64,000 nt of DNA from an uncultured Acidobacteriota bacterium (GCA_963777605.1 CAVZRV010000031.1:32001-96000), one strand, 5' to 3'; positions 139-19,083 are shown, counted from the first letter of the stretch. The notes: a model not told the origin generated them from the letters alone. Numbers and translations are program-made.

Positions 139-981
139 ATGCGGACCGCAACACGTCTTTGCCTTCTGATGTCACTCGCGCTTCCGGTCGCCAACTGTTC
201 CCTGGTTCAAGAGGCCGCCCGGCCGGTCGCCCCGGGTCAATTCCGACTGATTCGCCTGCCGGTACTCATTCTTGGGCAGGAGGCGCCCGGGCCGGCTGAG
301 GCGAGGCTCACCCTGTCCATCGGGACCGATGATGAACTGCCTCAAGGCCCTCAGGGCTTTGAAGTCCTTCCTGACGAGAGCATTGTTGTCACCGACCCCC
401 TGGCGCATCGCCTAGCGATTTTCGACGGCCAGGGAGATTTTTTGCGGGCCTTCGACATCGGCTTTGCCGCTGACAGCGTTCGCTTCGAAGACAGCCTGCT
501 CCTGATCCGGCGCGCGTTCACGGGAGAGGAGTACTCACTCGATCTCACGGGAAATCTCCCGCCTCAGCTCCGTGGCCGTGCCCGCGACCTGGCGGGTGGT
601 GACCGGGCACTGATGGTGGAGCCGGGAGTTGGAGAGATCACCCCCAGTTCAGCTCGCGGGCTGGAGCAAGCCTCTTTCCCGGTGCGGATGAATGGGGATG
701 AGAATCCCCTGATCTCACTTCGTTATCTGGGCAGCGATAAAAACGGTTTTCATTATGTTGCCCTGGAGACCGCAGAGGTCGGAGACGCAGTTGAAGTCGC
801 CAAGCGTCTGCGAAAATACGGGCCGAACGGCGAACTGATCGCCGAGGCTCCAGACATTCCCAACGACTACTTTGTGAGTCCGGTTGACGAGTTTCGCCTT
901 CACGGCCAGTCAGTTTTCCACCTGGTCCCACTTCGCAACGAGGTGCGGATCGAAATCTGGGAGACCGGCGATGAGCGCTGA
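139..981 (+). CDS. Exported (probable lipo)protein with NHL-like beta-propeller blades
   Basis: 280 aa; signal peptide ending in lipobox-like PVANC; GPQGFEVLPDESIVVTDPLAHRLAIFD resembles an NHL repeat; GAGGGAG RBS upstream. Confidence 0.65.
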   Translation: MRTATRLCLLMSLALPVANCSLVQEAARPVAPGQFRLIRLPVLILGQEAPGPAEARLTLSIGTDDELPQGPQGFEVLPDESIVVTDPLAHRLAIFDGQGDFLRAFDIGFAADSVRFEDSLLLIRRAFTGEEYSLDLTGNLPPQLRGRARDLAGGDRALMVEPGVGEITPSSARGLEQASFPVRMNGDENPLISLRYLGSDKNGFHYVALETAEVGDAVEVAKRLRKYGPNGELIAEAPDIPNDYFVSPVDEFRLHGQSVFHLVPLRNEVRIEIWETGDER

Positions 982-1025: not shown

Positions 1026-1670
1026 ATGAAAGCCATCTCCCGAATCTCGATTATTGCGCTCGCATCCGGGATGCTTTTCACCCTCCGGGGCCAGCCGGTT
1101 CGTGAATTGCCTCCCCTGACACGTGACCAGATCATCAGCACTGCACGCCAGTTCGCGGAACACCGGTGGACCTGCAAAGAGAGAAACCGCCACGCTCCGT
1201 GCGTCCCCAGCGGTTACTCCAGTGACTGGAAGGCCCAAGAGACCGTAACCGGGGTTCCCTACGATTGGGGCGGCATGGACTCGCCCGAAGTCTTCGACAG
1301 AAAGCTGGCTTCGGGTCAGGCGGCCGGCTCTCATTCCAGGCACGGAATTACCGACTGCACTGCGGGCATCGATTGCTCGGGTTTCGTCTGCTTTTGCTGG
1401 GGCCAGCCGGCTGTACACGAGTTTTCGACCCAGACCATTCGGTCCATCTCGGGGCGGCCCCGATACAACTGGTACACGGACATGAAGCCCGGAGATGCCC
1501 TCAATAAGCCCGGCAGCCACGTGGTGTTGTTCGCCGGGTACCGGCCGGATGGGAATCCCATAGTCTTCGAGGCTTCCGGCAGTGCAGGCAGGGTAATTCT
1601 AAACGACTGGAGTACTTGGTCCCGATTCAAGGGCTACTACCCTCTCCAATACAGCAGGGTCGTGCAATGA
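1026..1670 (+). CDS. Secreted NlpC/P60-like cysteine peptidase (putative peptidoglycan hydrolase)
   Basis: GVPYDWGG, GIDCSGFV (catalytic Cys), PGDAL..GSHVVLF (catalytic His), FEASG; N-terminal signal peptide. Confidence 0.8.
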   Translation: MKAISRISIIALASGMLFTLRGQPVRELPPLTRDQIISTARQFAEHRWTCKERNRHAPCVPSGYSSDWKAQETVTGVPYDWGGMDSPEVFDRKLASGQAAGSHSRHGITDCTAGIDCSGFVCFCWGQPAVHEFSTQTIRSISGRPRYNWYTDMKPGDALNKPGSHVVLFAGYRPDGNPIVFEASGSAGRVILNDWSTWSRFKGYYPLQYSRVVQ

Positions 1671-1692
1671 GACTCCCTCCTGGAGGATTAAG

Positions 1693-3738
1693 ATGAGAGC
1701 ATCCTGGCCTACCATCATTCTTTGCCTCACTTGCCTGCTTGTCGGCTGTTCGGACACTACCGGCGTGCCAGATTCTTCGAGTCCTTCGGGCCGCCGGCAG
1801 GAGTTTGGGCAACCGCCAGCCGGCAGCGAAGTCGAGTACGCTGACCCGACCCGACCGGCAACCAAGTGGGCACTGCTAGTGGGGATTAACGAATATCGTT
1901 ATCCTTCCCGGGTGTCTTCCCTGGCCGGCTGCGTCAACGACGTTGAGCTGATGAAGAGCGTGTTGATCGGGAAGTACGAGTACCCTGAAAGCCAAGTCCT
2001 GGTACTAACCAATGAGGCCGCTACCCACCAGGGGATTCTCCATGCATTCAGGGACCACCTGATTCGCAACGCCCAGCGCGATGACGTAGTCATTTTTCAT
2101 TACAGCGGTCACGGTTCGCAAATGCGAGACACTTCCGGGGACGAACTGGACGGCTGGGACGAGACGCTGGTCCCCCATGACAGCCGGGATCCGGAAGGTA
2201 AGGTTTTCGATATCAGCGACGACGAACTCAACACGCTTTTCCTCGAGCTCCAGCAGCGCACGCGAAATATCACGTTCATACTCGACAGCTGCAACTCGGG
2301 TACGGCTCTTCGAGCCGCAGGAAACGTCCGGAGGATCGCCCCTGACGAACGCACGCCGCCGGCTGAGCCTGGCGATTCCGGAACGCGGGGCGTCAGTGAA
2401 GGGTCCAACGATTGGAGGCCGGACAATCTCAACTACACTCTGATTTCGGGATGCCTTGCCGGAGAAAGTTCCTTTGAGCACTGGGCTGACAACCGGGAGC
2501 ACGGTGCCCTAACCTACTTCCTGGCCAGCCAGTTACGACAGGCAAGTCCCCAAAGTACCTACCGCGATGTCATGGATGCGGTCAGTGGAAAGGTCAACGC
2601 CCGCTATCCCGCTCAGCACCCTCAATTGGAGGGCGCGGGCTCGGACAAGGTCATTTTCGGGGACACTACCGTCCTGGCGAGACCCTTTGTCCTCTGCTCT
2701 CCACGGAGCCAGGGCACGGTTGAACTTCAGGCCGGCCAGGCATACGGAGCGACCATTGGCTCGGTTTTTGAGATCTTTGCCCCCGGCACGAAAGACTTCG
2801 GCAACACGGATAATCCCCTTGGCAGGTGCCAGGTGACACAGGTCGGGAATTTTAGTTCCGTCGCGAAACTGTCTACTCCGGTCACCATCCCGAACTTCTC
2901 CCGGGCGGTTGAATGGGATCACAGCTACCCGGAGTTTCGCCTGCGGGTCCATCTCCAGGGACTGGGGAACTCGCCGGCGCTGCGGGGAGTCCGGGAGGAA
3001 CTGGAGCAGTATCACCACCTCGAGTTCCAGCTGCAGCCCCGTGACTACCACGTACTGTTGCGCCAGGCCGGTGCTGAAATTGTCATGGAAGGGGGAGACC
3101 AGACGGAAATTGCACCCCGTACTCCCATCGACGACGCCGATGCTGTGGGGCTCGTGGTCCGCCGAACCCTGGATTGGGCCAAGTGGTTCAATATTCTATC
3201 GATTGCAAACCCGTCTCCGGGTCTCGATGTTCGATTGTCGGTTTCGGAGGCGGAGGGGGACGGAGGACGGGGGACCCCACTCCGCCGGATCGGGGCTCCG
3301 ACGCTCGTGCTGCAAGACGGTCAAGCGTTCGAGTGCAAGGTCGAAAACCGGTCGGACAAGGGCGTCTATCTTTCGATCCTGGATCTGTCCACGGACGGCA
3401 GCGTATCGATGGTGTATCCCCAATCGGGCACCGCCGACTTGCTGGTCCCAAACGGTGTCTGGCAGCGGCGCCTGAACACCTTTGTGCCAGATGGTCGGAG
3501 CTCCGTCAGGGATGTACTGAAAGTGTTCGCGACAACGAGCCCGGTGGACTTCCGATTCCTGCAACGGGACCCAGTGCGAGGGGGAGTCGCGCCGGAGGAG
3601 TTGAGCCGAAGCCTCGGGACGCCCTTGCGACAGCTGATTTCGTCGGTCGCCCTCGGCACGACCCGGAACGTGTCTTCCCCGGTTCCCTTGGGGGACTGGA
3701 GCACTTCCGAGCAGGTGATTGAAGTCAGGCGCGAGTAA
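1693..3738 (+). CDS. Lipoprotein caspase (Peptidase C14 family) with C-terminal DUF4384-like domain
   Basis: Lipobox LLVGC; WALLVGINEY, LAGCVND, HYSGHGSQ (His), LDSCNSG (Cys), GALTYFL, QHPQLEG; C-terminal VYLSILDLSTDGSVSMVYP...LKVFAT; GGAGG RBS. Confidence 0.88.
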   Translation: MRASWPTIILCLTCLLVGCSDTTGVPDSSSPSGRRQEFGQPPAGSEVEYADPTRPATKWALLVGINEYRYPSRVSSLAGCVNDVELMKSVLIGKYEYPESQVLVLTNEAATHQGILHAFRDHLIRNAQRDDVVIFHYSGHGSQMRDTSGDELDGWDETLVPHDSRDPEGKVFDISDDELNTLFLELQQRTRNITFILDSCNSGTALRAAGNVRRIAPDERTPPAEPGDSGTRGVSEGSNDWRPDNLNYTLISGCLAGESSFEHWADNREHGALTYFLASQLRQASPQSTYRDVMDAVSGKVNARYPAQHPQLEGAGSDKVIFGDTTVLARPFVLCSPRSQGTVELQAGQAYGATIGSVFEIFAPGTKDFGNTDNPLGRCQVTQVGNFSSVAKLSTPVTIPNFSRAVEWDHSYPEFRLRVHLQGLGNSPALRGVREELEQYHHLEFQLQPRDYHVLLRQAGAEIVMEGGDQTEIAPRTPIDDADAVGLVVRRTLDWAKWFNILSIANPSPGLDVRLSVSEAEGDGGRGTPLRRIGAPTLVLQDGQAFECKVENRSDKGVYLSILDLSTDGSVSMVYPQSGTADLLVPNGVWQRRLNTFVPDGRSSVRDVLKVFATTSPVDFRFLQRDPVRGGVAPEELSRSLGTPLRQLISSVALGTTRNVSSPVPLGDWSTSEQVIEVRRE

Positions 3739-3885
3739 GCTGATCCCGATGGTGGCCAGGTATGAGATTTTGACGCAGTCGAAAATCGACCCTCTGGGAG
3801 TCTATTTCAAGCGAAAGGCCAAGATGAATTCTGTCATTTCTGGCGTATCCGGGAATTCGCCGACTAAATCGAGGGAGGGCCCAGC

Positions 3886-5931
3886 ATGTCGCTGATCCGA
3901 CTCACAGCCGCATTCACTCTAGTCGCTCTACTGGTCAGCTGCCAGACCACCGACGTTCGGGATCGCGGAGTCGTGCTCAAGCCCGAACCACTTGAGATCA
4001 GCGATTTCGGCACCTTCCGCGCCCTAATCATCGGCATCAACGGTTACAAGCATTGGCCGGTCCTCCAGTTTGCGGAATCGGACGCGCGAGACATCCGGGA
4101 GATATTGATCTCCAGCTACGGTTTCCAGCCTGAGAACGTACTGTCTCTCATCGGGTCGGAGGCGACGGAGAGCCGCATCCTGAACTCACTGAAAAGCCTG
4201 CTGAACCAGGCCACCGGGCAGGACAACATCCTCGTGTATTACGCAGGACACGGTCAACTGGATCCGCTGACTGACACGGGCAACTGGATACCGGTCGACG
4301 GAGAGCTTTACGACGAGTCCTCCTGGATTCCATTTTCCGTCGTTCGAACTCTCGTCACGGCCGAAAAGGTGAAGGCGGGAAGGATCCTGATCATTACCGA
4401 TTCCTGTTACGGTGGAGCGCTGGCTCGCTCCGGGCCGACTCCGGGAAAGCTCAATCCCGAGGACTCCGGTTATATCGAGTCATTGAAGAAAGTGCTTGGC
4501 AAGAAGAGCCGCCAGACCATAGCGTCCGGCGGGTTCGAGCAGGTTCCAGACCGAAGCCATTTTGCTGAGCTGCTGAAGGGCGCCCTCCGAATGAACCCGT
4601 ATCCGGTGATTGACATGGAGTTCATCTTCTACACCGAAGTGTTTCCCCATCTCAGGCTCATCGGGACTCAGTACCCGACTATGGTTCGCATGGTGAACGG
4701 GCCGGAGGAGAACGGACAATTCATTCTCGTCAAGGACGGCGCGACCCTGGATGCGCTGAACAGCGAAGAGGGGGAAACGGACGACAGACCCGATCAGACC
4801 CCGAAAGAGCCGGACGCCAAGACCCAGGCGGACATGGAGTTCTGGAATGAGATCAAGGACTCTTCGGACCCTGAGTTTCTGCAGGAGTACCTCCGTCAGT
4901 TCCCGGACGGGATCTTTGCCCTGATTGCCCAGAAACGCCTGGACGACTTGATTTCACCCGATCAGCCGAGCTTGAGGGTTCCCAAGCTTGTGGGGATGAA
5001 CGTCAAAAGCGCGCTGGACATCCTGGTTGGACTGGGGTTCAAAGAAGGCCGCATCACCACCGAGAACAGCGGAGCGAGCGACGGCACGGTACTTACGCAG
5101 GACCCGGCTCCCGAGTCCCCTGCTGCCGATGGCGCATTGATCAATCTGGTCGTGGCCAAAGCGTCGGAAAAACTCAGAATGCCCCAACTCATCGGCTCCA
5201 GCCGCGCCAAAGTGGCAGACGCACTCGCCAAGTACGGACTGCTCATTGGAAAAGTAGCGTACGTCAGTCCGAAGGAGGCCGGAGTAAAGGAAGCGGGCAT
5301 CGTGGTGAAGCAGTCTCCTGAGCAGGGAATACCGGTCGAACCGAAGACGTCGGTCGACCTCGTTTTCACTCAGTGGGAGTTGACTGTGCCGGACCTGGCC
5401 GATATGCCTGAAGAGCGGGCGGTCGCGCTGATCCAGAAATCCGGCCTGACGGTCGGCGAGATCAAGCGGGTCCAGAAAGGCGAGGTCGGCAAAGTCATCG
5501 GCCAGTCACCCAGGGCCGGAACTCCGGTTGAGCCCGGCGCTGAAATCCTGCTCTATATAGCTTCGGCGTCCCCAGGCAAGTCTCTCGAAGCCATTGCGAA
5601 GTCGAGAAATATCGTCGCCCGGACTCTGAACCCCAGCTTGGCTGCCCCTGGCCTCAACAGCCCATCCAATGGGCAAGTGTTCGGTCACTATCCCCGCAAG
5701 ACTGAATTGAGCTGGAACCCGGTTGGAGGGGCGGTGAGCTATGTTGTTGAAGCCGAGTTTCAATCGGGCTCGGTCTGGCAGCCTCTCTTCACACAGGACG
5801 GCGTCGGGTCTACTCGATACACCTTCAACTTCATCGGAGCCCAGCCAGGTCGATGGAGGGTTTGGGCGATCGACTCGCATGGAAAAGCAGGACAAAGATC
5901 CGGTTGGTGGAGTTTCCGATACACCCGTTAG
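3886..5931 (+). CDS. Lipoprotein caspase with three PASTA domains and C-terminal FN3-like domain
   Basis: Lipobox LLVSC; ALIIGINGY, YYAGHG (His), TDSCYGG (Cys); helical FWNEIK..YLRQFPDG motif; PASTA repeats VPKLVGM..QDPAP, MPQLIG..QSPEQG, VPDLAD..QSPRAG; LSWNPV..SY..RWRVWA. Confidence 0.88.
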   Translation: MSLIRLTAAFTLVALLVSCQTTDVRDRGVVLKPEPLEISDFGTFRALIIGINGYKHWPVLQFAESDARDIREILISSYGFQPENVLSLIGSEATESRILNSLKSLLNQATGQDNILVYYAGHGQLDPLTDTGNWIPVDGELYDESSWIPFSVVRTLVTAEKVKAGRILIITDSCYGGALARSGPTPGKLNPEDSGYIESLKKVLGKKSRQTIASGGFEQVPDRSHFAELLKGALRMNPYPVIDMEFIFYTEVFPHLRLIGTQYPTMVRMVNGPEENGQFILVKDGATLDALNSEEGETDDRPDQTPKEPDAKTQADMEFWNEIKDSSDPEFLQEYLRQFPDGIFALIAQKRLDDLISPDQPSLRVPKLVGMNVKSALDILVGLGFKEGRITTENSGASDGTVLTQDPAPESPAADGALINLVVAKASEKLRMPQLIGSSRAKVADALAKYGLLIGKVAYVSPKEAGVKEAGIVVKQSPEQGIPVEPKTSVDLVFTQWELTVPDLADMPEERAVALIQKSGLTVGEIKRVQKGEVGKVIGQSPRAGTPVEPGAEILLYIASASPGKSLEAIAKSRNIVARTLNPSLAAPGLNSPSNGQVFGHYPRKTELSWNPVGGAVSYVVEAEFQSGSVWQPLFTQDGVGSTRYTFNFIGAQPGRWRVWAIDSHGKAGQRSGWWSFRYTR

Positions 5932-5981: not shown

Positions 5982-6338
5982 ATGAAAAAGAAGCTATCAA
6001 TGGCCGATCACAAGACCCTGTCACTGGTGTCAAGTGTCCTGCTGCTGTGGTCCTTTTCCCAGACCATGGCTGTCCCTCCGCTCTTCTTCCGGCCCGAGCT
6101 GGTCCAACCAGCGGCAACCGTTTGCCCGGGGCCCGCGGAGGGGTTTGAGCTGCTCGTTCAAGACGCAGACGCTGACCGAGGTTGCTGCCAGTGGAAAGAC
6201 TCCAAGGGAAACAAGTGCTCCTATACGAACCGGGGTTACTGCCGCAAGAAGGCTGAAGAACTTCAGGTCCAGTTCGAGTTTCACAAAGACAAGACCTGCC
6301 AGACGGTTGGCGGCTGCCCGGCGGTGACACCCCCTTGA
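5982..6338 (+). CDS. Small secreted cysteine-rich protein
   Basis: AAGGAG RBS; hydrophobic signal; 7 Cys including GCC...C...C...C...C. Confidence 0.65.
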   Translation: MKKKLSMADHKTLSLVSSVLLLWSFSQTMAVPPLFFRPELVQPAATVCPGPAEGFELLVQDADADRGCCQWKDSKGNKCSYTNRGYCRKKAEELQVQFEFHKDKTCQTVGGCPAVTPP

Positions 6339-6570
6339 AGCTCGCTGAACCATCGCGTGAAGTTCTTGTGAGTGAAATTCACGAAATCACGGGACTCTTG
6401 GCTCTGCTGAGGATATAATCGCTCTCAAATATCCAATCCATTCCATCATCAAGTACGGGTTCCAGATAACTTGAAGCCTTCCTGAAGAAAACCCGGGCTG
6501 GTGTCCAGGTTAGATGGTCGGTTTCTGCTGGCCCGACGCACTGCACCATCACGGTGCGAAAGGGGGGACT

Positions 6571-6891
6571 ATGGATTTGGCGAAACTGCTTTCCTGGATC
6601 CCAGGCTGGCTCGGATTCCTCCTGCTCATTCTGGTCGGCCTGGCCATGACGCTCAACGGTGCGGCCAATTCGAACCTCGATTCGGTGAATCGACTCGGCT
6701 TCCTCGTCTTCGGAATCTGCGCGATCTTGATCGGCGTGTTTTCCTGGATTGCCGGGGGCACTTCGAAGGTGAAGGGACGGGAGGGAACGGTCGGAGTCAA
6801 GGTTGCCGCCTCGGATATGCCCTGGTGGGCGTGGCTCGTTGATGTGGGAGTGCTGGTGATTTCCATCCTGATCTTTGTGATCGGACGATGA
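6571..6891 (+). CDS. Small membrane protein (~3 TM)
   Basis: ATG at 6571 after AGGGGGG RBS; three hydrophobic segments. Confidence 0.7.
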   Translation: MDLAKLLSWIPGWLGFLLLILVGLAMTLNGAANSNLDSVNRLGFLVFGICAILIGVFSWIAGGTSKVKGREGTVGVKVAASDMPWWAWLVDVGVLVISILIFVIGR

Positions 6892-7748: not shown

Positions 7749-8453
7749 ATGCTGGAGCGACTCCGCCGACCCTTCTTCATCGCCTCCCTCGTCTGCCTGG
7801 TTCTGACGCTCCTGGTGGAACTTGGTTCCTCTGCCCTGCTCGGCCAGGGTGGCTTCGCCGAGCAACTCGATCTGCCGACGCCCGGATATGGAGTCCCCTA
7901 CCTGGCGTTACTTGACGGGCTCCTGCTTCTGACCGTTTCCCTGATCGCACTTGCCCTCTTGCTGCCCGAGCGGGTTCACGGCCGAACCCAGGGAATCGTG
8001 ACTCTTGTTGCCTCTATTCTGATTCTATTCGGTGGGATCAAGGCTGCCATCTCGGCCTTAATCGGCCTGATCCTGATGGTGAGTCTGTTCCTGGCTCCGA
8101 TCTTCGGAACCATCGCCTACATGGCCATGTATTCCCATTTTGACCGTTCGGGAGCGGCCATTGCGTTGAGCATGGCCATGTTCCTGAAGATCCTCTTCGC
8201 CATCCTCCTCGTACTCGGACACCAGCGGTTCCTGGAAAACAAGAGCTTGGTCCTGGTCACGTTGACATCACTCATCGCGACCTGGCTGACTGGTTTTCTT
8301 CACGCCTTCCCGCCAGGAATCCTCGTCAGCATCACCGACGCCCTCGCAGGGCTGATCGTTGCAATCCTCGCGATTATCTGGGCGATTCTCTATCTTCTGT
8401 TCTCGATCTTCTCGGTCATCCGCGTGCTTCGAGTGGATCGAGCGACGGGCTGA
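7749..8453 (+). CDS. Polytopic membrane protein of unknown function
   Basis: ATG at 7749 (MLERLRRPFF), 10 nt after the upstream stop; ~6-7 hydrophobic helices. Confidence 0.75.
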   Translation: MLERLRRPFFIASLVCLVLTLLVELGSSALLGQGGFAEQLDLPTPGYGVPYLALLDGLLLLTVSLIALALLLPERVHGRTQGIVTLVASILILFGGIKAAISALIGLILMVSLFLAPIFGTIAYMAMYSHFDRSGAAIALSMAMFLKILFAILLVLGHQRFLENKSLVLVTLTSLIATWLTGFLHAFPPGILVSITDALAGLIVAILAIIWAILYLLFSIFSVIRVLRVDRATG

Positions 8454-9019: not shown

Positions 9020-10021
9020 CTATTGATTTGGCGGCAGCGGGGTGATGTGTTGAAGCAGTTCATTATCTCGAACGAGGTTCCGGTGATTCTCAAGGATCGC
9101 GATATCAGCCCGGGAGAAGACCGCATTCCACCGACGGTCCCGTTTGTTGCACAGCCAAACGGCGACTTCGGAACCCTCCAGCACTCGAGAATCGGGGGCC
9201 GGATCCTGCTTTCCAACCTTTCCGACGAGGGCATTATCGGTCGTCGATACCTTGTCCACGCCGCCGAGCTTCAATCCCCTGCTCTGCAGCGCTGCCACAG
9301 CCTGCTCCAGACTCGACCGCGCCAGATCTGGCACGAGTTTCGCGTCCGCCTCGAGAACCAGCTCCACTCTCGACTGCTTTTCTACTTCAGTACCGGCCTG
9401 GGGCTCCATGCGAAGCACTGTTCCTGGAGCCGGAGGGAAGCTCTCCACTCCCTGGGGCAATTGGTCTGCCGAGGCCGTGAGCTCGCGTCCTGACTCAGAT
9501 GGGCTCAGATCTACGTCCGTCAGTGCTTGCATAGCCTGGTCGACGGGCAGACCGACCACATTCGGGATCTCCACTGCGGAGCCGCTCAGAATGAGCCACA
9601 ATGTTACTCCGCCTCCCACCAGGAGGATCGCCGCAGCGACAGCGATCAATGGCCACCACTTGAAGCCCTCGGGGGCGGGCGCCTTTGGAACTTGAAAGGC
9701 GATCATTTGCCCTTCGTCAAACTCATCGTTGGGCCGTTGAAAGGAGGCTACCACAGGTCGCAGGGTGTAGGTCCCTTCCACGGTACCGGAAGGAACCTGA
9801 ATCTGAACGGTAAAGGAATGGGTCTCGTCAACCCCAAAGTCCTTTTCCGTTTCACCGATAACGGTCAGCCAGTCTTTATGGGTCTCCCCAAGAGCATTGA
9901 GCCAGACCTGCCCACGGATCGGGCGGCCACTCACGTTGGTTACGGTCAACGTGACCTCGCCGTGTCCGCCCAGCAGGACCCCCGGATCCTTGGCCGTAAT
10001 ACTGAAAAATCTTGCAGCCAT
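9020..10021 (-). CDS. Bitopic protein: N-terminal Ig-like domain, single TM, two PASTA domains
   Basis: No signal peptide; beta-rich LTVTNVSGRP..GTYTLRP domain; TM WWPLIAVAAAILLVGGGVTLWLIL; PASTA repeats IPNVVGL..MEPQAG and VPDLARS..QDPAP. Confidence 0.82.
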   Translation of the reverse strand: MAARFFSITAKDPGVLLGGHGEVTLTVTNVSGRPIRGQVWLNALGETHKDWLTVIGETEKDFGVDETHSFTVQIQVPSGTVEGTYTLRPVVASFQRPNDEFDEGQMIAFQVPKAPAPEGFKWWPLIAVAAAILLVGGGVTLWLILSGSAVEIPNVVGLPVDQAMQALTDVDLSPSESGRELTASADQLPQGVESFPPAPGTVLRMEPQAGTEVEKQSRVELVLEADAKLVPDLARSSLEQAVAALQSRGLKLGGVDKVSTTDNALVGKVGKQDPAPDSRVLEGSEVAVWLCNKRDRRWNAVFSRADIAILENHRNLVRDNELLQHITPLPPNQ

Positions 10022-10213: not shown

Positions 10214-10759
10214 TCAAGCGAAGTTCAGATCGTAGGTAACATGAGCGGGCTTCTCCATCTCGATGATGCGCTGGATAAGCCTGCGATGAGTTTCAGCTTC
10301 AGCCGGGGCCTCGATCCGAACATGAAATGGAATGACCCATCCCTGCGCATCACAGATCGTTTCATCGATCCGGAAGCCCTTTATTCCGGTCGCAATCTCC
10401 AGGAATCGAACGATGCCGTCTCGAGTCCCCTGCTCACGGGCGAGGCTCGCCGACGCCGCCACGAGTTCCCTCAGTCGTCCGATCCCCGAAGAAATCGGTT
10501 CCGACGAATTCCCCCAGTCTGACCGGTCTTGAGACGCTTGATCCAGGACCCAACTGAGATCGACCCACTGAGCCAGGTATTCCACCATCCGGTCCGAGGT
10601 GGTCACAGGATTGAAGTGGGCCGCAAGATCGCTCAGAATCGCTTCCGAGGGAGCATGCAATGCCTCCATGATGTCCAACACTCCGGCGAGTGGGGATCCC
10701 TCTCGCAACGTCCGGCGAATGATCTCGGGCAGCAGGGCTGCAATCTCATTCCGGTTCAT
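10214..10759 (-). CDS. CIS baseplate wedge protein (P2 gpI-like)
   Basis: LLPEIIR, YLAQWV, GTRDGI and EKPAHV motifs; follows baseplate J; alternative GTG start at 10765. Confidence 0.85.
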   Translation of the reverse strand: MNRNEIAALLPEIIRRTLREGSPLAGVLDIMEALHAPSEAILSDLAAHFNPVTTSDRMVEYLAQWVDLSWVLDQASQDRSDWGNSSEPISSGIGRLRELVAASASLAREQGTRDGIVRFLEIATGIKGFRIDETICDAQGWVIPFHVRIEAPAEAETHRRLIQRIIEMEKPAHVTYDLNFA

Positions 10760-13322
10760 GTTCACTCACCGTCTCGATTTCGTGCTCTCCTGAGCAAAAG
10801 AGCCAGGTTTCGGGCAGCGTTACCGTTTCCAGAAACTCGCGCCTGGAGGAAGATTCGTAGCTGAGGCCTCCATTGTCAGATCGATGAACACCCTCGCTCG
10901 TACCGGTCATCAAGAACCGATGGTCAACATCGGAGGCCAGTGATCTGATCGAATGGTACTTCCCCACCTCACGCATCGGGAGACCGCAGCCGACTTTCGG
11001 CGGCTGCCACTTGGGCTCGTGAGAGGCCGGCTCGATCTTGAAGACTCCGGCCTGGTCCGTCGCCGCGAACAACACCTCGCCTTGAAAAGCCAGTGCCCAG
11101 CAGGTTCCTCCCTGCCATCCCTCACTGAAGAACTGCCCTTCCAACTGAATCTGGGAGCCCCGGAGCTCCCACCGGTAGCAGCCCTTTCCCTCCGCTTTCC
11201 CGGGAACTGCAATGCCGGCCCACAAATAGCGAAGGGGACCAACTTCCTGAACCTCGAGCACCCTGACATCTTCTCCTTCCAGGCCAATCCGCGTGAAACT
11301 GCCGGCCTTCGCTCCTTGAGTGGAGAGAAAGACACCAACAACGCCTCGCCCCGCGACCGCAACCGACACCTCCCCCTGGGCATCTGACGACGACGCCACT
11401 GCGTAGAATCCCAGATCCTGGTTGCCAGGCTCGACCAGAATCTGGAGGGGGACTGCCTCCGGCTTCATCGCAAGTTCATAAAGCCCGACGTCCGTGGCCA
11501 GGATCAGGATCGGCTCTCCTTCCCTATTGATCCAGTCCATGTCAAAGACGGTGAAACCCGTTTGAGCGGCCCTGCGCCACGTCTCACCACAGTCAGATGA
11601 GACGTGGACCCGTGAAGCCCCCGGCTCTGACTCCACTGCCGAGGTCACGGCCAGCAACCCGGGCCGGGACCGATGGACCTTAACCTGACGCAAATCCTCT
11701 CCGGGGAACCTGCCTGCCGTTTCCCACCCGTTACCGTCGTCCAGCGACCGGAATAGAACAGAGCCGGCAGCCGCATACCAGGCACCCCTCTGGAAGGTAT
11801 CCGCGGCGATCGAGGTCACGTCCCTTTCGGGCACCTCGTCGACGAGAAGTCGAACCTGATCGGCGTAGCTCACGCCCGAGTCGGAAAGCAGGAGGTCATA
11901 AACGTGGGATGCCCGCAAGGGATAACCGAACCTCCAGCCAGCAGATCGCTCCGAGGGGAGTGGATTGATGGCCGAATGGAGCCGGTCCAGGACCCGGGTC
12001 CTCACCGCCTCAGGCGATTCCCCCATGTGAACAACAACCCGCGCTTTGATGCGAACCTGCTTGTAGCGAACCCAGTTCACCAGGCAGGTGGTTCCCAGGG
12101 GTCGCCTGCGATCCAACTCTCCCTGAATTCTCTCCCTTTCGGTTTCCGTCTGGTGCTCGGACAACGTATCCAGCGACACCCGTTCCCCGCTCCGGGCCGC
12201 CTCAAGAACATTCGGAACCAGCAAAACCTCCACAGTCCCCGGCGCCGCGTGGACCCAGAGAGCAGCCTTTGTAAACGCCTTGGCGCGGGCTACGGCCCCG
12301 GAAGCCCGCAGGGCAGCCAACTCATAGTCTCGACCGGTCACTGCCCGGCTGAGTGACCTCAACTCCTGGGGCCCTCTGATTAGGGCGTTCTCCAGGCTTT
12401 CTGTGTTCCTTCCGCCGGTGGCCGGAGTAGGATTGACCACACTGATACCGGGAAGGGGATCGCGAAGGACTGTGAGGAGCCCGGCGCTTACATTACCCTC
12501 GGCTCCGCCTCCATGACGATACCACAATCTGATTTCCCGTTCCGCCGGAGGAACCTCGGCCAGGAGACTCGACGAATCGGCCAGCATCTGACCGGAGGCG
12601 GACATCCGGGCAGATGGTGCGAAGACGATGCTTCCAGTGAAGCGGTCGGCCAAATAGACAAAGCGCTCCCGTTCAATGTCGGTAAAACTGCCGACCTCTC
12701 GCCAGATCCGGAAGGCCTTTCCCTGGAATTCGACGGCCCTGGCCCGGCCGTCCAAGGCTGTGCGATCCGTTTCGACGCCGACCATGAGGTCCAAATCATC
12801 TCCCGTTGGAGAGATCAACGGAGAATGGGAGGTGTACACCCTTTGGCCGGCCAGCCCAGTTCCTCGACCCGCGAGTTCTCCTTCGACCAGTTCGCAGTGA
12901 CAGGCGAGGACATCTACTCCCGAGGCTTCGGGAGTAAGGGTTGCGGACGCGGTCGTCGCAAAGGAGACAATCTTCTGGGCACTGCCTCCCCTGGCCATGG
13001 TTACCCGGGTTCCCCGGGGGACCTCGAGGGATGCCGTCCCGGGGCGACTGCGACTGAATCGGAGCATAACCTGGGCGGCCGAAGGCGGCATCAATTGAAC
13101 TCCCATCAAGCGCAGAAATTCGATGAATGCCTTCTCTGGAAGCCGGTTCAGGCGGTAGATCATCGCTTCAGTGAGATAGGCGAAGAGCTCGAGCAGGACC
13201 ATGCCGGGATCGCTGGGAGAGAAGTCGGTCCATTCCGAGGTCTGTTGTGGAATCCGACTGCGTGCCTCCTCCAGGAGTTGCCGAAAATCACGATCATCGA
13301 GGTTTGGCGGAGTCAGAGACAT
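10746..13322 (-). CDS. CIS baseplate J/gp6-like protein with inserted Asp-box beta-propeller
   Basis: PNLDDRDF..WTDFSPSDPGMVLLELFA..RLNRLPEK; GGGAEGNV, ATGGRNTES, RAVTGRDYE; Asp-box-like SLDDGNGW, SSDCGETW, SDNGGLSY; terminal LFCSGEH. Confidence 0.9.
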   Translation of the reverse strand: MSLTPPNLDDRDFRQLLEEARSRIPQQTSEWTDFSPSDPGMVLLELFAYLTEAMIYRLNRLPEKAFIEFLRLMGVQLMPPSAAQVMLRFSRSRPGTASLEVPRGTRVTMARGGSAQKIVSFATTASATLTPEASGVDVLACHCELVEGELAGRGTGLAGQRVYTSHSPLISPTGDDLDLMVGVETDRTALDGRARAVEFQGKAFRIWREVGSFTDIERERFVYLADRFTGSIVFAPSARMSASGQMLADSSSLLAEVPPAEREIRLWYRHGGGAEGNVSAGLLTVLRDPLPGISVVNPTPATGGRNTESLENALIRGPQELRSLSRAVTGRDYELAALRASGAVARAKAFTKAALWVHAAPGTVEVLLVPNVLEAARSGERVSLDTLSEHQTETERERIQGELDRRRPLGTTCLVNWVRYKQVRIKARVVVHMGESPEAVRTRVLDRLHSAINPLPSERSAGWRFGYPLRASHVYDLLLSDSGVSYADQVRLLVDEVPERDVTSIAADTFQRGAWYAAAGSVLFRSLDDGNGWETAGRFPGEDLRQVKVHRSRPGLLAVTSAVESEPGASRVHVSSDCGETWRRAAQTGFTVFDMDWINREGEPILILATDVGLYELAMKPEAVPLQILVEPGNQDLGFYAVASSSDAQGEVSVAVAGRGVVGVFLSTQGAKAGSFTRIGLEGEDVRVLEVQEVGPLRYLWAGIAVPGKAEGKGCYRWELRGSQIQLEGQFFSEGWQGGTCWALAFQGEVLFAATDQAGVFKIEPASHEPKWQPPKVGCGLPMREVGKYHSIRSLASDVDHRFLMTGTSEGVHRSDNGGLSYESSSRREFLETVTLPETWLFCSGEHEIETVSEHEPE

Positions 13323-13753
13323 CAGGAGGCCTCTCCGGACAGGTTGAAGGGAAATGAAAGTCGGGCCCTCTCCAGCGTTTTACGCACCCGGTACTCCAGA
13401 AGAATGTCGAGTCTGCCCGGGTCCGACTTGTTCGGTTCAGCATCCAGAAAGAGGATCTCGATCCGGGGTTCCCACCGGACCAGGCACTGTCGGACATAAT
13501 GAATCGCAAGACCGGCAGTCGTTTGATCGTTAGGCGAAAACTGGAGCCGGGCCAGTTCGCACCCGTACTGGGGGCGCATCACCCGCTCACCGGGGCGCGT
13601 GGAGAGCAGGAGGAAAATGGCCTGTCGCACTGAGGCCTGATCCTCAACCATCCCGATTCCTCCCGTTGGGGAGATGCGAATACCTGCATCGCTTTCCGGA
13701 ACATCGAGGTCAGGGAGATCGAATCGCCACGCCCGATATCTTGGAACCGTCAT
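13322..13753 (-). CDS. gp25/GpW baseplate-sheath initiator
   Basis: VRQAIFLLLSTRPGERVMRPQYGC...RWEPRI. Confidence 0.93.
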   Translation of the reverse strand: MTVPRYRAWRFDLPDLDVPESDAGIRISPTGGIGMVEDQASVRQAIFLLLSTRPGERVMRPQYGCELARLQFSPNDQTTAGLAIHYVRQCLVRWEPRIEILFLDAEPNKSDPGRLDILLEYRVRKTLERARLSFPFNLSGEAS

Positions 13754-14094
13754 TCCGTCCCCTCCCCCACAAGGTCCTGTCCCGGGTTTCTCACTTTGTA
13801 ATCAACCGTTCCCGGCGGAGTCCCGTCGGTCAGCCCGCGCACGCTCTCCAGGCAAACCTTGCGGCTGTCAATCCGAAGGAGATCCGAGTAGCCCACTCGG
13901 ACCTTCAGGGTCACCTGGCATGGCTTGATTCCGATCCCGACGTTTGGACAGCCCTTGATCTCTTTCCTTTCGGGATCGGCTTCGACCAGCACTCTGCGGT
14001 CCTCGACCGTAACCAGGTCCTGCGTGGGCGGCACCTCAATGTTGCCCAATTCGTGCAGGCAGACGAGAATTGCGTCTTCGGTCAGCCAGTTCAA
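13750..14094 (-). CDS. PAAR-like (DUF4280-type) spike tip protein
   Basis: CLH..GCP..KPC metal-ligand pattern; lies between VgrG-like gene and gp25; TTG start abuts the upstream stop. Confidence 0.7.
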   Translation of the reverse strand: MNWLTEDAILVCLHELGNIEVPPTQDLVTVEDRRVLVEADPERKEIKGCPNVGIGIKPCQVTLKVRVGYSDLLRIDSRKVCLESVRGLTDGTPPGTVDYKVRNPGQDLVGEGTE

Positions 14095-15615
14095 TCATGC
14101 CCTCCGAAAATCAATGTTGCTCCCTCGAATCACAATCGGGTTTCCAGGTGCCCGGATCTCGAGACCGGTCATGGCGTGCAAAAGCACCTTCTCGGGGGTC
14201 AGTTCCACAAAGCTGCCCTGGCTATTCTCGAGGCGAATGCGGGACCCGGAGTCGTCCAGGGTAATCTTCTGACCAGCTGGCGTCTGCAAGGTATACCTGC
14301 GGACTCGGCCGTCCTCGAGGCCCCAGTCGGGAACGGACTTGACTCCGAACAGGCCTCCAAGGACAACCCCCTGGCTGAGATCCTCACGGGCAAACAGCAC
14401 CAGCACCTGATCGTCCAGGTCGGGCAATGCCACCAGCCCTTTGCCAGCTCCGGCCCCGACTGTGACCACCCCCAGCCAGTTCGTCTCGATTCCCCCGAGC
14501 GATGGCAGGACCGCCTGGATCCGTCCCAGACCTTCGGGATCATCAACACTCGTCACAACCCCAACGGTTACGATGGGGCCTCGAGCGCGTTGCGAGAACG
14601 GTGCAACCGCGGTCGACAACTCCGACAGGTGACCTCGGGCGGCGTCAACTGTGTGGGTCACCTCGGTCACGACATAGTCTCCATCCAGAGAAGCGCCCAG
14701 CCCATCGACCTCGGCAACCACCCCGGGCTCCAGATCGGAATTGCCCGCAGCTATTCCCCAGAGCACAACTTCGTTGGCGATGCGGATGTCGAGTTCGGCC
14801 TGAGCCGTCGCATCGGCCAGGGCGTCATCGGTCCAGACATCGTTCAAAATCAGGCGCTCTCCGGTTCCCCCGAGCCGGCCAGGCGAGACTTCGCGCGAGA
14901 TCCGGCGACCGTTACGACCCGCCTCCGCCTCGCCGCGACGTTCTTCAACCCGACCCAGATCCCAACCGAGTGATGCGACACTTCTGCATGAAGGATCACC
15001 GTTGATCTCTACTCGCGCTTCAAGGAGCGTGGTTCCGACCGAGAGCGGCACCCGCTGATCACGTCCGGCGAGACTGAAGAGCTGCACTGAAGGCCCATCG
15101 AGGAAGAAGAACAAACCGGCACGCTCACAGGATTCTCGCAACAACTCCAAATCCGTCTGTCCCCACTGCGCCAGGCGATTCCAGACCGGCCCGGTTTCCC
15201 CGGCCTCGATGGAAAGACCCAGGTCCCCGACCAGTTCGCGGGCCAGCCCCTCACAATTCAGCGAAGTGAAAACTCGGGTCGGCTGGCGCTTCTGGAGCCG
15301 ATGGAGCAGGTCATAAGCTCGAATCGTCATCAGATGTCCGCCCGCACTTTCAAAAACGTGTTCAACCGCGGTGATCTCGCCTTCAAAAATGGAGCCGGAA
15401 AGACCTTCGGCCTCAACCCGCAATTTGGATCCTGGTTCCACCGGACTCGCCGGTTCTCCTCGATTGGGTGGATCCAGAAAGGTCAGTATGCAAAGTGCAG
15501 GCATCGAAAGGCGCTGCTGAACCCGGACCGCACCGAGATTGCCGTGCCGCACTGGATCGGTCGCAGTGCCATCGATTTCGACAATGATCGAGGGCACGGA
15601 TGCCGAATGCGCCAT
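14095..15615 (-). CDS. VgrG-like hub-spike (gp27-gp5 / baseplate V)
   Basis: IFEGEITAVE, QWGQTDLELL, VTEVTH, GVVTSVDDPEGLGRI, LPDLDDQVLV (OB fold), short beta-repeat tail. Confidence 0.9.
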   Translation of the reverse strand: MAHSASVPSIIVEIDGTATDPVRHGNLGAVRVQQRLSMPALCILTFLDPPNRGEPASPVEPGSKLRVEAEGLSGSIFEGEITAVEHVFESAGGHLMTIRAYDLLHRLQKRQPTRVFTSLNCEGLARELVGDLGLSIEAGETGPVWNRLAQWGQTDLELLRESCERAGLFFFLDGPSVQLFSLAGRDQRVPLSVGTTLLEARVEINGDPSCRSVASLGWDLGRVEERRGEAEAGRNGRRISREVSPGRLGGTGERLILNDVWTDDALADATAQAELDIRIANEVVLWGIAAGNSDLEPGVVAEVDGLGASLDGDYVVTEVTHTVDAARGHLSELSTAVAPFSQRARGPIVTVGVVTSVDDPEGLGRIQAVLPSLGGIETNWLGVVTVGAGAGKGLVALPDLDDQVLVLFAREDLSQGVVLGGLFGVKSVPDWGLEDGRVRRYTLQTPAGQKITLDDSGSRIRLENSQGSFVELTPEKVLLHAMTGLEIRAPGNPIVIRGSNIDFRRA

Positions 15616-15618
15616 TCG

Positions 15619-16359
15619 CTAGCTCCTTTCCCCGTGGATCGATGGGATTCTGAGCAGAGCGCCCGACGCGATTCGGAGCGGATCCTCCACGTTATTGGCC
15701 CACGCGATCAGCCTCCAGAACACCGGACTTCCATAGCGGCGAAACGCGATGTCCGACAGACTCTCGCTGGCTCTTCCTCCATCCGGATCCGTGCCCCCGA
15801 TCACCTCGAAAACCCCGTCCGTGTCCTGCGGTTCGCCCGAAACGGACTCAGTTGATAAAGCAGCAGGCAGGCTTTCGGGAGCGTTCTGCGCCTCTTTGAA
15901 CATCTCCGGAACGCGGACGAGTCTCATCCGCAGCCAGGATCTTCTGGGCGATCCGACCGAATCGAACTGCTCGAACCGCTCCGAGACTGCGGTAATAACG
16001 CCGGGAATGTTCCAGATTTTGCCCCAGACGAACCGAACGACTGGAGGCCTGGCTGAAGATCCGTCGGAGGCGCTGTTTTCGGCCAGCTGCCAAAGGGGGG
16101 CCGTCAGATTCCGAACGTTTTCGGTCTGAATGGATGAACCGGACAGCGTCGTGTCGAAGAGCAGGTCCAACGTCAACTCCGTGGTTCCTCCTCCGGTGAA
16201 CACCAGGGGATCGTCGGATAGTCCTCCGCCGGACACCCGGCCATTCAGCGATTTTCGGGCCTGAACACCGGCCAGTCGCCGCACCACGAGCGAGTCCGGG
16301 TTGAGGAGACACCGGATGCGTTCCCCGGTTTCCTCGACGAGAAGGGCTACCCGTTCCAT
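15619..16359 (-). CDS. CIS tube initiator (Afp7-like) with C-terminal LysM-like domain
   Basis: LNPDSL, LTLDLLFDT, PPVVRFVWG, FDSVGSPRR; SLSDIAFRRYGSPVFWRLIAWAN..DP..G..LRIP. Confidence 0.87.
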   Translation of the reverse strand: MERVALLVEETGERIRCLLNPDSLVVRRLAGVQARKSLNGRVSGGGLSDDPLVFTGGGTTELTLDLLFDTTLSGSSIQTENVRNLTAPLWQLAENSASDGSSARPPVVRFVWGKIWNIPGVITAVSERFEQFDSVGSPRRSWLRMRLVRVPEMFKEAQNAPESLPAALSTESVSGEPQDTDGVFEVIGGTDPDGGRASESLSDIAFRRYGSPVFWRLIAWANNVEDPLRIASGALLRIPSIHGERS

Positions 16360-17390
16360 CGTCTACCTTCCTGTTCCCGACTGAGCCGCCTCTTTCGCTT
16401 TTCGTCCTGCTCCCCCGATTGGATCTCAGCGTACCAGTCCCCGCCCGGGTCAAGGAGGGACGGCCACGGATCATCCGGTGGCAGTGGGAACTGACCCGGC
16501 CGGACATCCGCAATCGGCTGACTGAGGTTCAGCTGACTTGCTCCATCTGGTGAAAGCACAAACGCGGCAGTGCTCAGCGGCTCGAACGGCGCTGGAAACA
16601 CGCCGGCTCCCGGTAAGGTTGCGACGGCCTGCTCCGTAACGTTCCGGCCGGGCACCGTCGCGCCCGGGTCCCGGCGGTCACCTCCCCCATGCGGAGGAAG
16701 AACCCTGGCGCGGTTCCCGTTGAGTCGGTTTTCCGCGATCGCTGCTTTCTGGTTCTGGGGGCAGGTAAAGGGTAGCTCCCGTGAAACTGGTTTGGCAATC
16801 GAATGGCGTACTCCTCCGGGACCCGCAACGGAAGCAGGTTCGGAAGCGGAACTCTCCTCAGACAATCGACCCTCGACCAGACGATTCCGGGTTACAGATA
16901 CGCCTTCTTTTCTCCGCTGGAAAGCCGTTTCCTTCCGATCTGTCGACCCGTCCGAATCTGACGGTTCAACCGGAGGAACGAACGCTGAGCCGGAGTCCCG
17001 CGATTCAAGCGCCCGGTGGCTCACAACCGCGGGTTGGAAAACGGGCTGAGGTCGGCCTTCCCGATCAGTCCGAATCCCTTTGACGCGGCGAGACCTTACC
17101 CCAGGCTTTCTTCCCTGACCCCAGTGGACCCACTTCAGCTCCCCGGCCTTTATGGATTTGCCGGCACCGTACTCGGAACGTTCCCGGATGTGCTCCAGCC
17201 AGTGCGGCGGGGGCTCGGGATAGCTCGCCAGAAAAGCCCGTTCGAGCCAATCCGGCGCCACAGACGGGCGGTGAGGAGACATTGGCGGTCTGCGGTCGAA
17301 CCCGAGTTTTCCTGCCAGCACGTTGCTCCAGGCGATGACTATGCGAAGCAATCTGAGAAAGAGTCTTCTTGCCAGATCGAGCAGCATCAT
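16347..17390 (-). CDS. Low-complexity hypothetical protein inside the CIS operon
   Basis: 347 aa ORF fills the gap between tube and initiator with coupled junctions; amphipathic N-terminus, Pro/Ser/Arg-rich middle. Confidence 0.6.
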   Translation of the reverse strand: MMLLDLARRLFLRLLRIVIAWSNVLAGKLGFDRRPPMSPHRPSVAPDWLERAFLASYPEPPPHWLEHIRERSEYGAGKSIKAGELKWVHWGQGRKPGVRSRRVKGIRTDREGRPQPVFQPAVVSHRALESRDSGSAFVPPVEPSDSDGSTDRKETAFQRRKEGVSVTRNRLVEGRLSEESSASEPASVAGPGGVRHSIAKPVSRELPFTCPQNQKAAIAENRLNGNRARVLPPHGGGDRRDPGATVPGRNVTEQAVATLPGAGVFPAPFEPLSTAAFVLSPDGASQLNLSQPIADVRPGQFPLPPDDPWPSLLDPGGDWYAEIQSGEQDEKRKRRLSREQEGRRWNG

Positions 17391-17393
17391 CCG

Positions 17394-17876
17394 TTAGCCT
17401 CGATCCAGAGATTCGAATACCAACGTGATTGACTCAATGGCGGCTTCATTCGTCAAGGCATCCAGCGGAGCTCCACACCATTCGGCAGGCCAGGCATTAA
17501 TCAAGTTCCAACGGAGCATCTCGGTCACCCCATCAGCATCGAGCATCACAATCGAGACATTCCGGCGTTCGACCCGACCCTGAACGGCGGTCAAAAACCA
17601 CTCCCACAGGTCGGTTGATGTCGTCAGACCGTATCGCAGGGTGATGTCCCCATAATCAACCTGGCCCGGCAGCCTGCGGACCACCTGGCTGGTCCCACCC
17701 TCACGATAACGAATGGCATCGACACTGATACGCATACCGCTGCAGGCAGTGAAATGACCCTCGGTCACACCCTGGACTTCGAGTTTGAAATTGTAAGCGC
17801 GGAAGGGATCCACCCAACCACCTGTCTGAGCGCCTGTTTCTGTCTCCTGAGGCGGGGTTTCGGCAGGTTCCGGCAT
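17394..17876 (-). CDS. CIS inner tube protein (T4 gp19-like)
   Basis: DPFRAYNFKLE, YREGG, LPG..DITLRYG, WNLINAWP, IESITL. Confidence 0.95.
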   Translation of the reverse strand: MPEPAETPPQETETGAQTGGWVDPFRAYNFKLEVQGVTEGHFTACSGMRISVDAIRYREGGTSQVVRRLPGQVDYGDITLRYGLTTSTDLWEWFLTAVQGRVERRNVSIVMLDADGVTEMLRWNLINAWPAEWCGAPLDALTNEAAIESITLVFESLDRG

Positions 17877-17888
17877 GGTTCATCTCCT

Positions 17889-19082: not shown

Positions 19083-19083
19083 G

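Follow-up and report, generated by a model that had tools for sequence, protein, structure and literature searches.

Predicted metacaspase-type lipoproteins next to a compact contractile injection system operon in an uncultured Acidobacteriota bacterium

Why does an uncultured soil bacterium of the Acidobacteriota carry two different caspase-like protease genes side by side, and do their products act on each other or on something else? The genes, here called casp1 (1693..3738) and casp2 (3886..5931), lie in tandem on the plus strand of a 64,000-nucleotide stretch of DNA (GCA_963777605.1, CAVZRV010000031.1:32001-96000), which was analysed as a whole and is called the window below; open reading frames (ORFs) are named in window coordinates. 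The function of bacterial metacaspases is a long-standing open question, on which most statements are inferred from domain catalogues. An original prediction, made from the sequence alone, had taken the pair for an initiator/executioner-like cascade of lipoproteins outside the cytoplasm. Our analysis led to a different answer. By sequence and predicted structure, casp1 and casp2 are two different metacaspase-type cysteine proteases (family C14, 'orthocaspases'). They are not a self-contained caspase cascade. Together with two further genes on the plus strand, sm118 (5982..6338) and tm256 (7749..8453), casp2 is best explained as one of the accessory genes that go with a compact contractile injection system (CIS), to which the three genes are tied by distribution and position. 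The CIS is encoded next door, was overlooked in the original prediction and is the strongest contextual signal at this locus.

The injection system and its candidate accessory genes

The CIS operon runs on the minus strand from 19773 down to 9020 and is convergent with the casp1/casp2 block. Its 11 genes encode, in this order, a Pvc16_N-like protein, the sheath, a gp19-type tube protein, an ORF of 347 amino acids (aa), CIS_tube, a VgrG-like spike, a 114-aa protein, gp25, baseplate J (TIGR02243, E 1.7e-75), Tail_P2_I and a protein that we call PASTA_TM. The structural genes from Pvc16_N-like to Tail_P2_I occupy 10214..19773, and PASTA_TM is the final gene (9020..10021). That one operon combines genes for sheath, tube, spike, gp25, baseplate J and a P2_I-like protein places the system among the contractile injection systems. 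The 347-aa and 114-aa ORFs are without assignment, and the AAA+ ATPase and tail-fibre families of Afp/PVC-type extracellular CISs found no match among the ORFs scanned (9020-23193). PASTA_TM is a bitopic protein of 333 aa without signal peptide, in which an N-terminal domain of ~120 aa is followed by a transmembrane (TM) helix at residues 126-144 and by two PASTA units; the predicted orientation is N-terminus in and PASTA out. The PASTA regions of PASTA_TM and casp2 share 34% identity (E 8e-11). The CIS is probably membrane-anchored. A scan of viral contigs with the CIS baseplate protein returned none.

We compared the locus with 76 genomes of the same order, 137 of the class and a phylum sample of 401 genomes. 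The CIS baseplate J orthologue, casp2 orthologues (E<1e-100) and tm256 were each found in exactly three genomes of the order, namely that of the window (G000) and two others (G353 and G433); the remaining 73 gave no match. Across the class, casp2 was present in three of 137 genomes, and in the phylum sample full-length casp2 was found in G000 and G353 only. Orthologous CIS operons occurred in three of the 76 order genomes and in one further genome of the phylum sample (G305).

The arrangement of the genes in these genomes was informative. G353, the nearest relative, is an Acidobacteriota metagenome-assembled genome (MAG). It, whose contig (L001) was the sole one retrieved by a genome-contig scan, is syntenic throughout except for a ceramidase-like gene that is absent there, and its casp1 and casp2 are 68-69% identical to those of the window. 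G433 belongs to another family and is fragmented. On one strand of a 3.7-kb contig it carries a casp2 orthologue, followed by an sm118 homologue (52%) and the Pvc16-like first CIS gene; this orthologue has 748 aa, is 42% identical over residues 40-681 and contains C14 and three PASTA units. A second contig of G433 extends from VgrG through PASTA_TM, and on a third a casp1-like gene is divergent from a tm256 homologue (59%). The rearrangement in G433 has thus preserved the adjacency to the CIS, which is our chief reason for tying casp2, sm118 and tm256 to it in function.

The sm118 family is small, with only nine members in a collection of 5.8 billion proteins. These small, apparently secreted proteins consist of a leader, which in several of them has a lipobox-like Cys, and a domain of ~55 residues with six invariant cysteines. 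In four contexts sm118 adjoins a casp2-type gene: G000, G353, G433 and a metagenome locus (L026), where it is convergent with the caspase gene and lies 8 bp from the caspase stop codon. A profile search of all fetched loci recovered the known copies only, and none in locus L046. We predicted a complex of casp2 (residues 30-300) with sm118 (residues 30-118) and obtained a score of 0.41, classed as 'weak support' (runs 0.02, 0.45 and 0.41). The best of three controls scored 0.00, the runs agreed in at least 48% of contacts and the partner pLDDT was at least 58. Of 157 solved complexes, 116 reached the mark used for such predictions, as did 2 of 215 mismatched pairs; with scores of 0.60 or below, only 18 of the 157 solved complexes did so, along with both of the mismatches that passed. 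We regard sm118 as a candidate partner of casp2, as inhibitor or as substrate.

Several observations weigh against a functional tie to the CIS. The co-distribution comprises three genomes from two independent lineages, with G000 and G353 in one family. The casp1-like gene of G433 resembles casp1 in the catalytic domain only (34% over residues 8-323), and its contig is unjoined to the CIS contigs. Genes of the casp1 type occur without this CIS, and without casp2, in two genomes (G423, 45% over residues 56-680, and G446). Of 79 metagenome loci with a casp2-type catalytic domain, not one carried CIS genes; the PASTA architecture is absent from all of them, and only 19 extend for 3 kb or more on each side. 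The predicted casp2-sm118 complex is weak, as described above. In G305, which belongs to another family and is 99% complete, the CIS operon has an orthologue (49% identity for baseplate J) that is accompanied on the same strand by tm256 and two PASTA_TM-like genes; no C14 gene was detected in this genome by BLASTP over 52 kb or by a genome family search. The Pfam whole-genome family search had missed casp2 in G000 and G353, and the zero for G305 was cross-checked by a protein search and local BLASTP. The CIS of G305 indicates that the system does not need the proteases, which are accessory and not core.

The two predicted proteases

The original prediction had described two divergent tandem C14 proteases with intact His-Cys dyads, and both points hold. 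Each gene encodes 681 aa, and a strong Shine-Dalgarno sequence precedes each ATG by 7-8 nt (GGAGGA for casp1 and GAGGGAGGG for casp2). The open frame of casp2 (687 aa) is only six codons longer upstream from stop to stop, and its start is therefore well defined. Both proteins matched Peptidase_C14 (PF00656; Pfam cut-off 21.4), casp1 at residues 58-314 (E 2.3e-27, 96.6 bits) and casp2 at residues 45-192 (E 4.3e-14, 53.2 bits). They are 26% identical to each other over 166 aa of the p20 region (E 3e-10). The dyad motifs are YSGHG and DSCNSG in casp1 (H140 and C200) and YAGHG and DSCYGG in casp2 (H122 and C174); the dyads are conserved in homologues and coincide in alignment with the catalytic motifs of Yca1 and AtMC4.

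The AlphaFold model of casp1 (mean pLDDT 85.8, pTM 0.86) suggests a leader, a disordered linker (20-50), a caspase domain (~55-325), a beta-barrel (330-410), an alpha/beta domain and a C-terminal beta-sandwich (507-681). With VIA-align, the catalytic-domain model was closest to Arabidopsis metacaspase 4 (6w8r; Z 27.6, rmsd 2.9, 245 residues aligned), Arabidopsis metacaspase 9 (Z 27.0) and Geobacter GSU0716 (Z 25.4). Foldseek likewise matched metacaspases (E 6.6e-14), and a profile match to yeast Yca1 was obtained (E 3.8e-37). In an alignment of 73 casp1-family proteins, H140 and C200 were at least 90% conserved and N82, D83, G141 and D198 were invariant; conserved positions extended to the C-terminus (W495, N552, G569, P576, R658 and W669). 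The linker after C200 is of low confidence in the model (202-207 and 232-236) and contains arginines that are at least 90% conserved (R207, R213 and R232) or invariant (R220) in the same 73 sequences.

The C-terminal part of casp1 had been called DUF4384-like. The window protein itself is below threshold for this family (PF14326; E 0.035, 14.6 bits, cut-off 27), as read from the profile match, and its orthologue gave E 0.0046. A tentative assignment of the sandwich to the DUF4384 type draws on the best Atlas neighbour, which is a DUF4384 cluster (0.95), on PF14326 in 8 of the 120 listed homologues and on a metagenome relative with PF14326 (E 1.5e-11); the predicted beta-sandwich agrees with it. 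When the whole model was searched with VIA-align, the sandwich gave middling Z values of 9-10 to macroglobulin-, PKD- and FnIII-type domains, and the barrel at 330-410 likewise gave Z 9-10; these values are hints of fold class only.

The casp1 family comprises at least 1,285 proteins, the number that passed E 1e-3 among 7,999 scored candidates. The 120 listed homologues, apart from the query's own entry, are 40-69% identical over 89-100% of the query and ~600-870 aa long, and the named entries among them are Terriglobia or Vicinamibacteria MAGs. We conclude that casp1 is another member of a very large, widely scattered and known family of ~670-aa envelope proteases. The window's genome alone contains at least five C14 genes, four of them from the Pfam family search, in which casp2 was not included.

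The model of casp2 (mean pLDDT 84.7) suggests a caspase domain (38-295), a helical hairpin (311-356), three PASTA units (362-426, 430-495 and 499-559) and an all-beta domain (585-681). The PASTA units that had been noted before were confirmed as three stretches matching PF03793 (E 2.1e-32, 111.3 bits), with a further profile match to PknB/PrkC (E 2.5e-22). The best Foldseek match was to the entire extracellular region of Staphylococcus aureus PrkC (3py9; E 1e-15, 324 columns), followed by other PASTA ectodomains and then by metacaspases (7qp1 and 4f6o; E ~1e-10, TMt 0.6-0.66). The C-terminal domain had been described as FN3-like. No Pfam match for FN3 was obtained for residues 585-681 even at E 10; the whole-protein model predicts an all-beta sandwich there. 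At 51-55% identity, this sandwich also ends open frames of ~260 aa (L008, L009 and L010) in three small (1.9 Mb) genomes of another family in the phylum (G072, G008 and G109); its presence in these frames makes it look like a mobile module.

The casp2 family has 99 members at E 1e-3, and nine of them, casp2 included, join PF00656 to PF03793. In all nine, H122, C174 and the helical motif after the protease domain are invariant. Most other members have only the catalytic domain in common with casp2, fused to PEGA, Sel1, FGE-sulfatase or other modules. Sequence and model thus describe casp2 as a rare fusion of a predicted metacaspase domain with a PrkC/PknB-like PASTA ectodomain. A scan of viral contigs with the casp2 alignment found only 10 loci, all with distant caspase relatives (23-29% identity). 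One metagenome locus (L036, 3488-9501) contains four consecutive co-directional casp2-type caspase ORFs (488, 491, 249 and 297 aa), so that the catalytic domain has expanded locally there.

Both proteins are probably exported and lipid-anchored. The lipoboxes of the original prediction, LLVGC in casp1 (MRASW...) and LLVSC in casp2 (MSLIR...), were found to end at Cys19 in each case, behind a basic N-terminus and a hydrophobic stretch. Hydrophobic N-termini (a 10-mer of at least 2.0 within the first 60 residues) were present in 114 of 120 casp1-family and 51 of 57 casp2-family proteins. A script with the strict pattern [LVI][ASTVI][GAS]C detected a lipobox in 8 casp1-family and 12 casp2-family proteins, and a relaxed lipobox was found in a further 20 and 12. 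Several relatives have leaders of the signal peptidase I type, which indicates that the conserved trait is export and not lipidation. Sorting of lipoproteins to the outer membrane follows the +2 rule, which is unvalidated in Acidobacteriota; the +2 residues here are Ser and Gln. The PASTA domain is an extracytoplasmic cell-wall binder in the solved kinases matched by casp2 (PDB 3PY9, 3M9G and 5E12). Leaders, family-wide hydrophobic N-termini and PASTA units all agree with the extracytoplasmic location that had been proposed for the pair.

In the Trypanosoma brucei metacaspase TbMCA2, the S1 pocket is formed by Cys92, Asp95, Ser156 and Asp211, and the two Asp fit a basic P1 residue, according to the parts of PMC4357240 and PMC6426788 considered here. 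Equivalence to these residues was assigned by motif spacing and by alignment to Yca1 and AtMC4, with which the casp1 motifs align residue for residue. All four equivalents are present in casp1 at the same spacing (GC80-V-N-D83, S138-G-H140 and D198-S-C200). Both S1 aspartates are kept in casp2 (D66 and D172), with Ala at the Cys and Ser positions. From these two aspartates we infer that casp1 and casp2 cleave after Arg/Lys. An acidic loop of casp1 (residues 146-157, DTSGDELDGWDE) aligns with DLDGDEEDGMDD of Yca1, and by this alignment with Ca-dependent metacaspases casp1 is possibly Ca-regulated.

Do the two proteases form a pair? Tandem metacaspase genes are known as such: a 2012 survey counted more than one metacaspase gene in 20 of 217 metacaspase operons (PMC3501461, in the part considered here). 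Among our 79 metagenome loci, eight contained at least two caspase ORFs, and two of these eight resemble one split gene. Pairing of a casp2-type with a casp1-type gene recurred in G353 and in one of the 79 loci (L045), where a casp2-type caspase (491 aa) is convergent with a casp1-type one (728 aa, the PF14326-containing relative mentioned above) at 8031-11759; no CIS genes were found within the 18.9 kb of this locus. Such a pairing may also exist on a 14,882-bp Vicinamibacteria contig (P0014 and P0139), for which the indication is circumstantial. The differing distributions of casp1 and casp2 argue against an obligate pair, and the initiator/executioner cascade of the original prediction is left without support.

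Proposed mechanism and alternatives

The remaining genes of the locus are relevant to how the association is explained. The plus-strand block is opened by up280 (139..981), which is without family match. It is followed by a gene for an NlpC/P60-like exported protein (1026..1670; E 0.0039, under the Pfam cut-off) that ends 22 bp before casp1. Downstream of sm118 lie tm125 (6514..6891), encoding a small membrane protein with three TM helices that is 73% identical to the G353 copy, a ceramidase-like multi-TM gene (6917-7738; PF05875, E 2.3e-10) and tm256. The tm256 ORF is open from a GTG at 7683, and the ATG at 7749 gives a protein of 234 aa with six TM helices; its best Atlas matches (0.88) are unnamed actinobacterial membrane proteins and serve as a lead only. 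The NlpC/P60-like gene and up280 were considered as conserved CIS partners and rejected, being conserved only in G353 and absent from G433 and G305. Farther upstream of up280 lie unrelated genes for a GH10 xylanase, a PEP-CTERM protein and a patatin-like protein. A promoter and terminator scan of 1-9200 gave one promoter-like site (mean of shuffles 2.0) and five terminator-like sites (mean 8.4), and was uninformative on operons. Among sequencing runs, a single DNA run was listed as sharing words with the query (word share 0.07), and RNA runs were absent from the list.

Three further observations concern the minus-strand side and the rest of the window. Between the two convergent blocks, at 8508-9010 on the minus strand, there are two short ORFs, one of 131 aa and one of 80 aa that has a TM-like N-terminus. 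Their counterpart in G353 is one 174-aa ORF located 3' of PASTA_TM (L001, 14045-14569), which both of them match, and the pair could reflect a frameshift, a split gene or an alternative start in the window. A regulator with HTH_3 and Peptidase_M78 (ImmA/IrrE-like) domains, which may be a CIS switch, is encoded at 20632-21729 (+), some 0.9 kb ahead of the first gene of the CIS operon and in the opposite orientation. At 34871-37612, two ORFs of ~900 aa overlap on opposite strands (34886-37597, +; 34871-37612, -), with no Pfam match for either.

We propose that periplasmic proteolysis of island-encoded envelope proteins after Arg/Lys is coupled to CIS function, and we put the probability of this mechanism at roughly 0.5. 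Sec export and lipidation at Cys19 would place casp1 and casp2 on the membrane, facing the periplasm, where the PASTA units of casp2 would dock on peptidoglycan or muropeptides. Both enzymes would cut after Arg/Lys, and their substrates would be envelope proteins of the island, with sm118 and the periplasmic PASTA part of PASTA_TM as candidates. The outcome could be that the state of the cell wall is coupled to CIS action, or that proteolysis aids the breach of the envelope or cell death when the CIS fires or is released. In a more specific form, which we consider a long shot, casp2 would be a periplasmic sensor-protease that responds to wall damage or muropeptides by cutting sm118, the PASTA part of PASTA_TM or both, and thereby licenses the firing of a membrane-anchored CIS. 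If this were true, licensed firing would serve regulated cell death or attack in a diderm bacterium, casp2 would be the first exported bacterial metacaspase with a mechanistic role assigned to it, and its action the first case of proteolysis that triggers a CIS.

The proteases might have no need of the CIS. As ordinary envelope housekeeping enzymes, engaged in protein turnover, maturation of exported proteins or release of nutrient peptides, they would neighbour it only through a shared inherited or transferred island. The large casp1 family with its members outside CIS-bearing genomes fits this explanation, as do the multiple C14 genes of the window's genome, the protease-free CIS of G305 and the convergent arrangement in the window, where the two blocks are not co-transcribed. 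Moreover, exported wall-binding metacaspases and operons with several metacaspases have long been catalogued with no CIS link in the parts of PMC3501461 and PMC3355149 considered here. However, casp2, sm118 and tm256 are each rare and within the order confined to the three CIS-bearing genomes of 76, casp2 and sm118 immediately precede the first CIS gene, in the same orientation, in the rearranged G433, and casp2 and PASTA_TM share related PASTA modules. We regard housekeeping as unlikely; if it were true and the genes had only hitch-hiked on the island, the finding would reduce to two more exported metacaspase homologues of an ordinary kind. An extracytoplasmic cascade, in which one of casp2 and casp1 would cleave and activate the other, is very unlikely in our view. 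Two active-looking C14 enzymes are predicted in tandem and are kept so in G353, and locus L045 has an analogous pair of a casp2-type protein with a casp1-type/DUF4384 protein. The conserved arginines of the casp1 linker could be processing sites, but they fit autoprocessing equally well, and the rarity of the pairing (one of 79 loci) and the differing phyletic patterns speak against a cascade.

Extracellular CISs and tailocins are released by lysis, and the plus-strand block could be a release module that breaches membrane, wall and outer membrane in the manner of tailocin lysis cassettes. It sits at the end of the CIS operon and contains the NlpC/P60-like gene, the three-TM tm125, the six-TM tm256 and two predicted lipoproteins, one of them with wall-binding PASTA units. 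Yet the NlpC/P60-like gene and up280 are missing from G433 and G305, the protein scans gave no match to families of holins, endolysins or spanins, and the bitopic PASTA_TM, together with the lack of a matched tail-fibre or AAA+ family, is a better fit for a membrane-anchored intracellular CIS; such a module strikes us as very improbable. Effector genes commonly flank CIS structural operons, and the caspase genes do so here, at the operon end in the window and at the operon start in G433. That casp1 and casp2 are cargo toxins delivered by the CIS is nevertheless hardly credible, as Sec/lipoprotein-type leaders and the extracytoplasmic PASTA units of casp2 lead away from a cytoplasmically assembled tube, and no AAA+ loader family was matched in the locus. 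Proteolysis in the periplasm, coupled to the CIS, is the explanation that we prefer.

Comparison with known systems

With bacterial metacaspases and orthocaspases such as GSU0716 (PDB 3BIJ) and the cyanobacterial enzymes, the predicted proteases have in common the His-Cys dyad, the acidic S1 aspartates and the caspase-haemoglobinase fold (Z 25-28). The combination of C14 with a C-terminal DUF4384 domain, which casp1 may share, is already listed for orthocaspases in the parts of PMC7475262 and PMC6426788 considered here. Those orthocaspases are cyanobacterial, and none is described in these parts with a lipoprotein leader, whereas casp1 and casp2 carry such leaders. Exported metacaspases have appeared in catalogues since 2012, and some of them bear domains that bind peptidoglycan (PMC3501461, and PMC3355149 for caspase-YARHG, both in part). 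Among them, A5ECX2 of Bradyrhizobium combines, like casp2, a signal peptide, C14 and a C-terminal domain proposed to bind the wall (PMC3355149); its wall module is YARHG and not PASTA, and no CIS context is mentioned in the part of that paper considered here. In the literature searched, we found no description of a caspase-PASTA fusion, and no link between metacaspases or Peptidase_C14 and contractile injection systems; the supplementary tables of PMC3501461 were outside this search.

The best-known caspase-like proteases of bacterial conflict systems differ from casp1 and casp2. Those associated with gasdermins or CRISPR (TPR-CHAT/Csx29) are cytoplasmic and paired with gasdermin or Cas7-11 (in part after 10.1101/2022.08.17.504292, itself considered in part). 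Like casp1 and casp2, they are clan CD proteases in conflict-type loci. In contrast to them, casp1 and casp2 are predicted to be exported, and no gasdermin or other PADLOC partner was present among the eight proteins scanned, where the only PADLOC matches were PASTA-driven ones to PD-T4-6 and one to a partial 'caspase' model. The original prediction had likewise seen no gasdermin-like gene. The NCBIfam EACC1-associated caspase type was rejected, with 47 and 56 bits against a cut-off of 140. With no partner gene matched and the EACC1-type scores far below the cut-off, the gasdermin- and CRISPR-linked types are a poor fit.

The closest parallel to the accessory part of casp2 is found in the PASTA ectodomains of PrkC/PknB (3PY9, 3M9G and 5E12), whose three PASTA units match those of casp2 by profile and by predicted fold. 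The output differs: in casp2 it would be a periplasmic protease on a predicted lipid anchor, and not a cytoplasmic kinase behind a TM helix. An Ig-like domain closes the PrkC ectodomain, much as a predicted beta-sandwich forms the C-terminus of casp2. The host of the PASTA-casp2 protein is a diderm acidobacterium, unlike those of the PrkC/PknB-type systems compared.

For the injection system itself, the nearest comparison is the cytoplasmic CIS of Streptomyces, in which CisA is a bitopic membrane adaptor required for firing (PMC12237407, in part). PASTA_TM has the same predicted layout as CisA, and it is in layout that the two are likened here. Both the Streptomyces CIS and that of the window come with further conserved membrane proteins. 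They differ in the domain outside the membrane, which is PASTA here, and in the proteases, as no protease accessory is mentioned in the part of PMC12237407 considered here. With the CIS of the window, the few CISs that are probably membrane-anchored gain a representative from a diderm acidobacterium. What is new is casp2 with sm118: a protease with a PrkC-like, predicted wall-binding region, tied to a compact CIS that is probably anchored in the membrane. An experimentally tractable machine with a CisA-like bitopic protein is thereby linked to a small Cys-rich protein and a rare, predicted caspase-PASTA lipoprotein.

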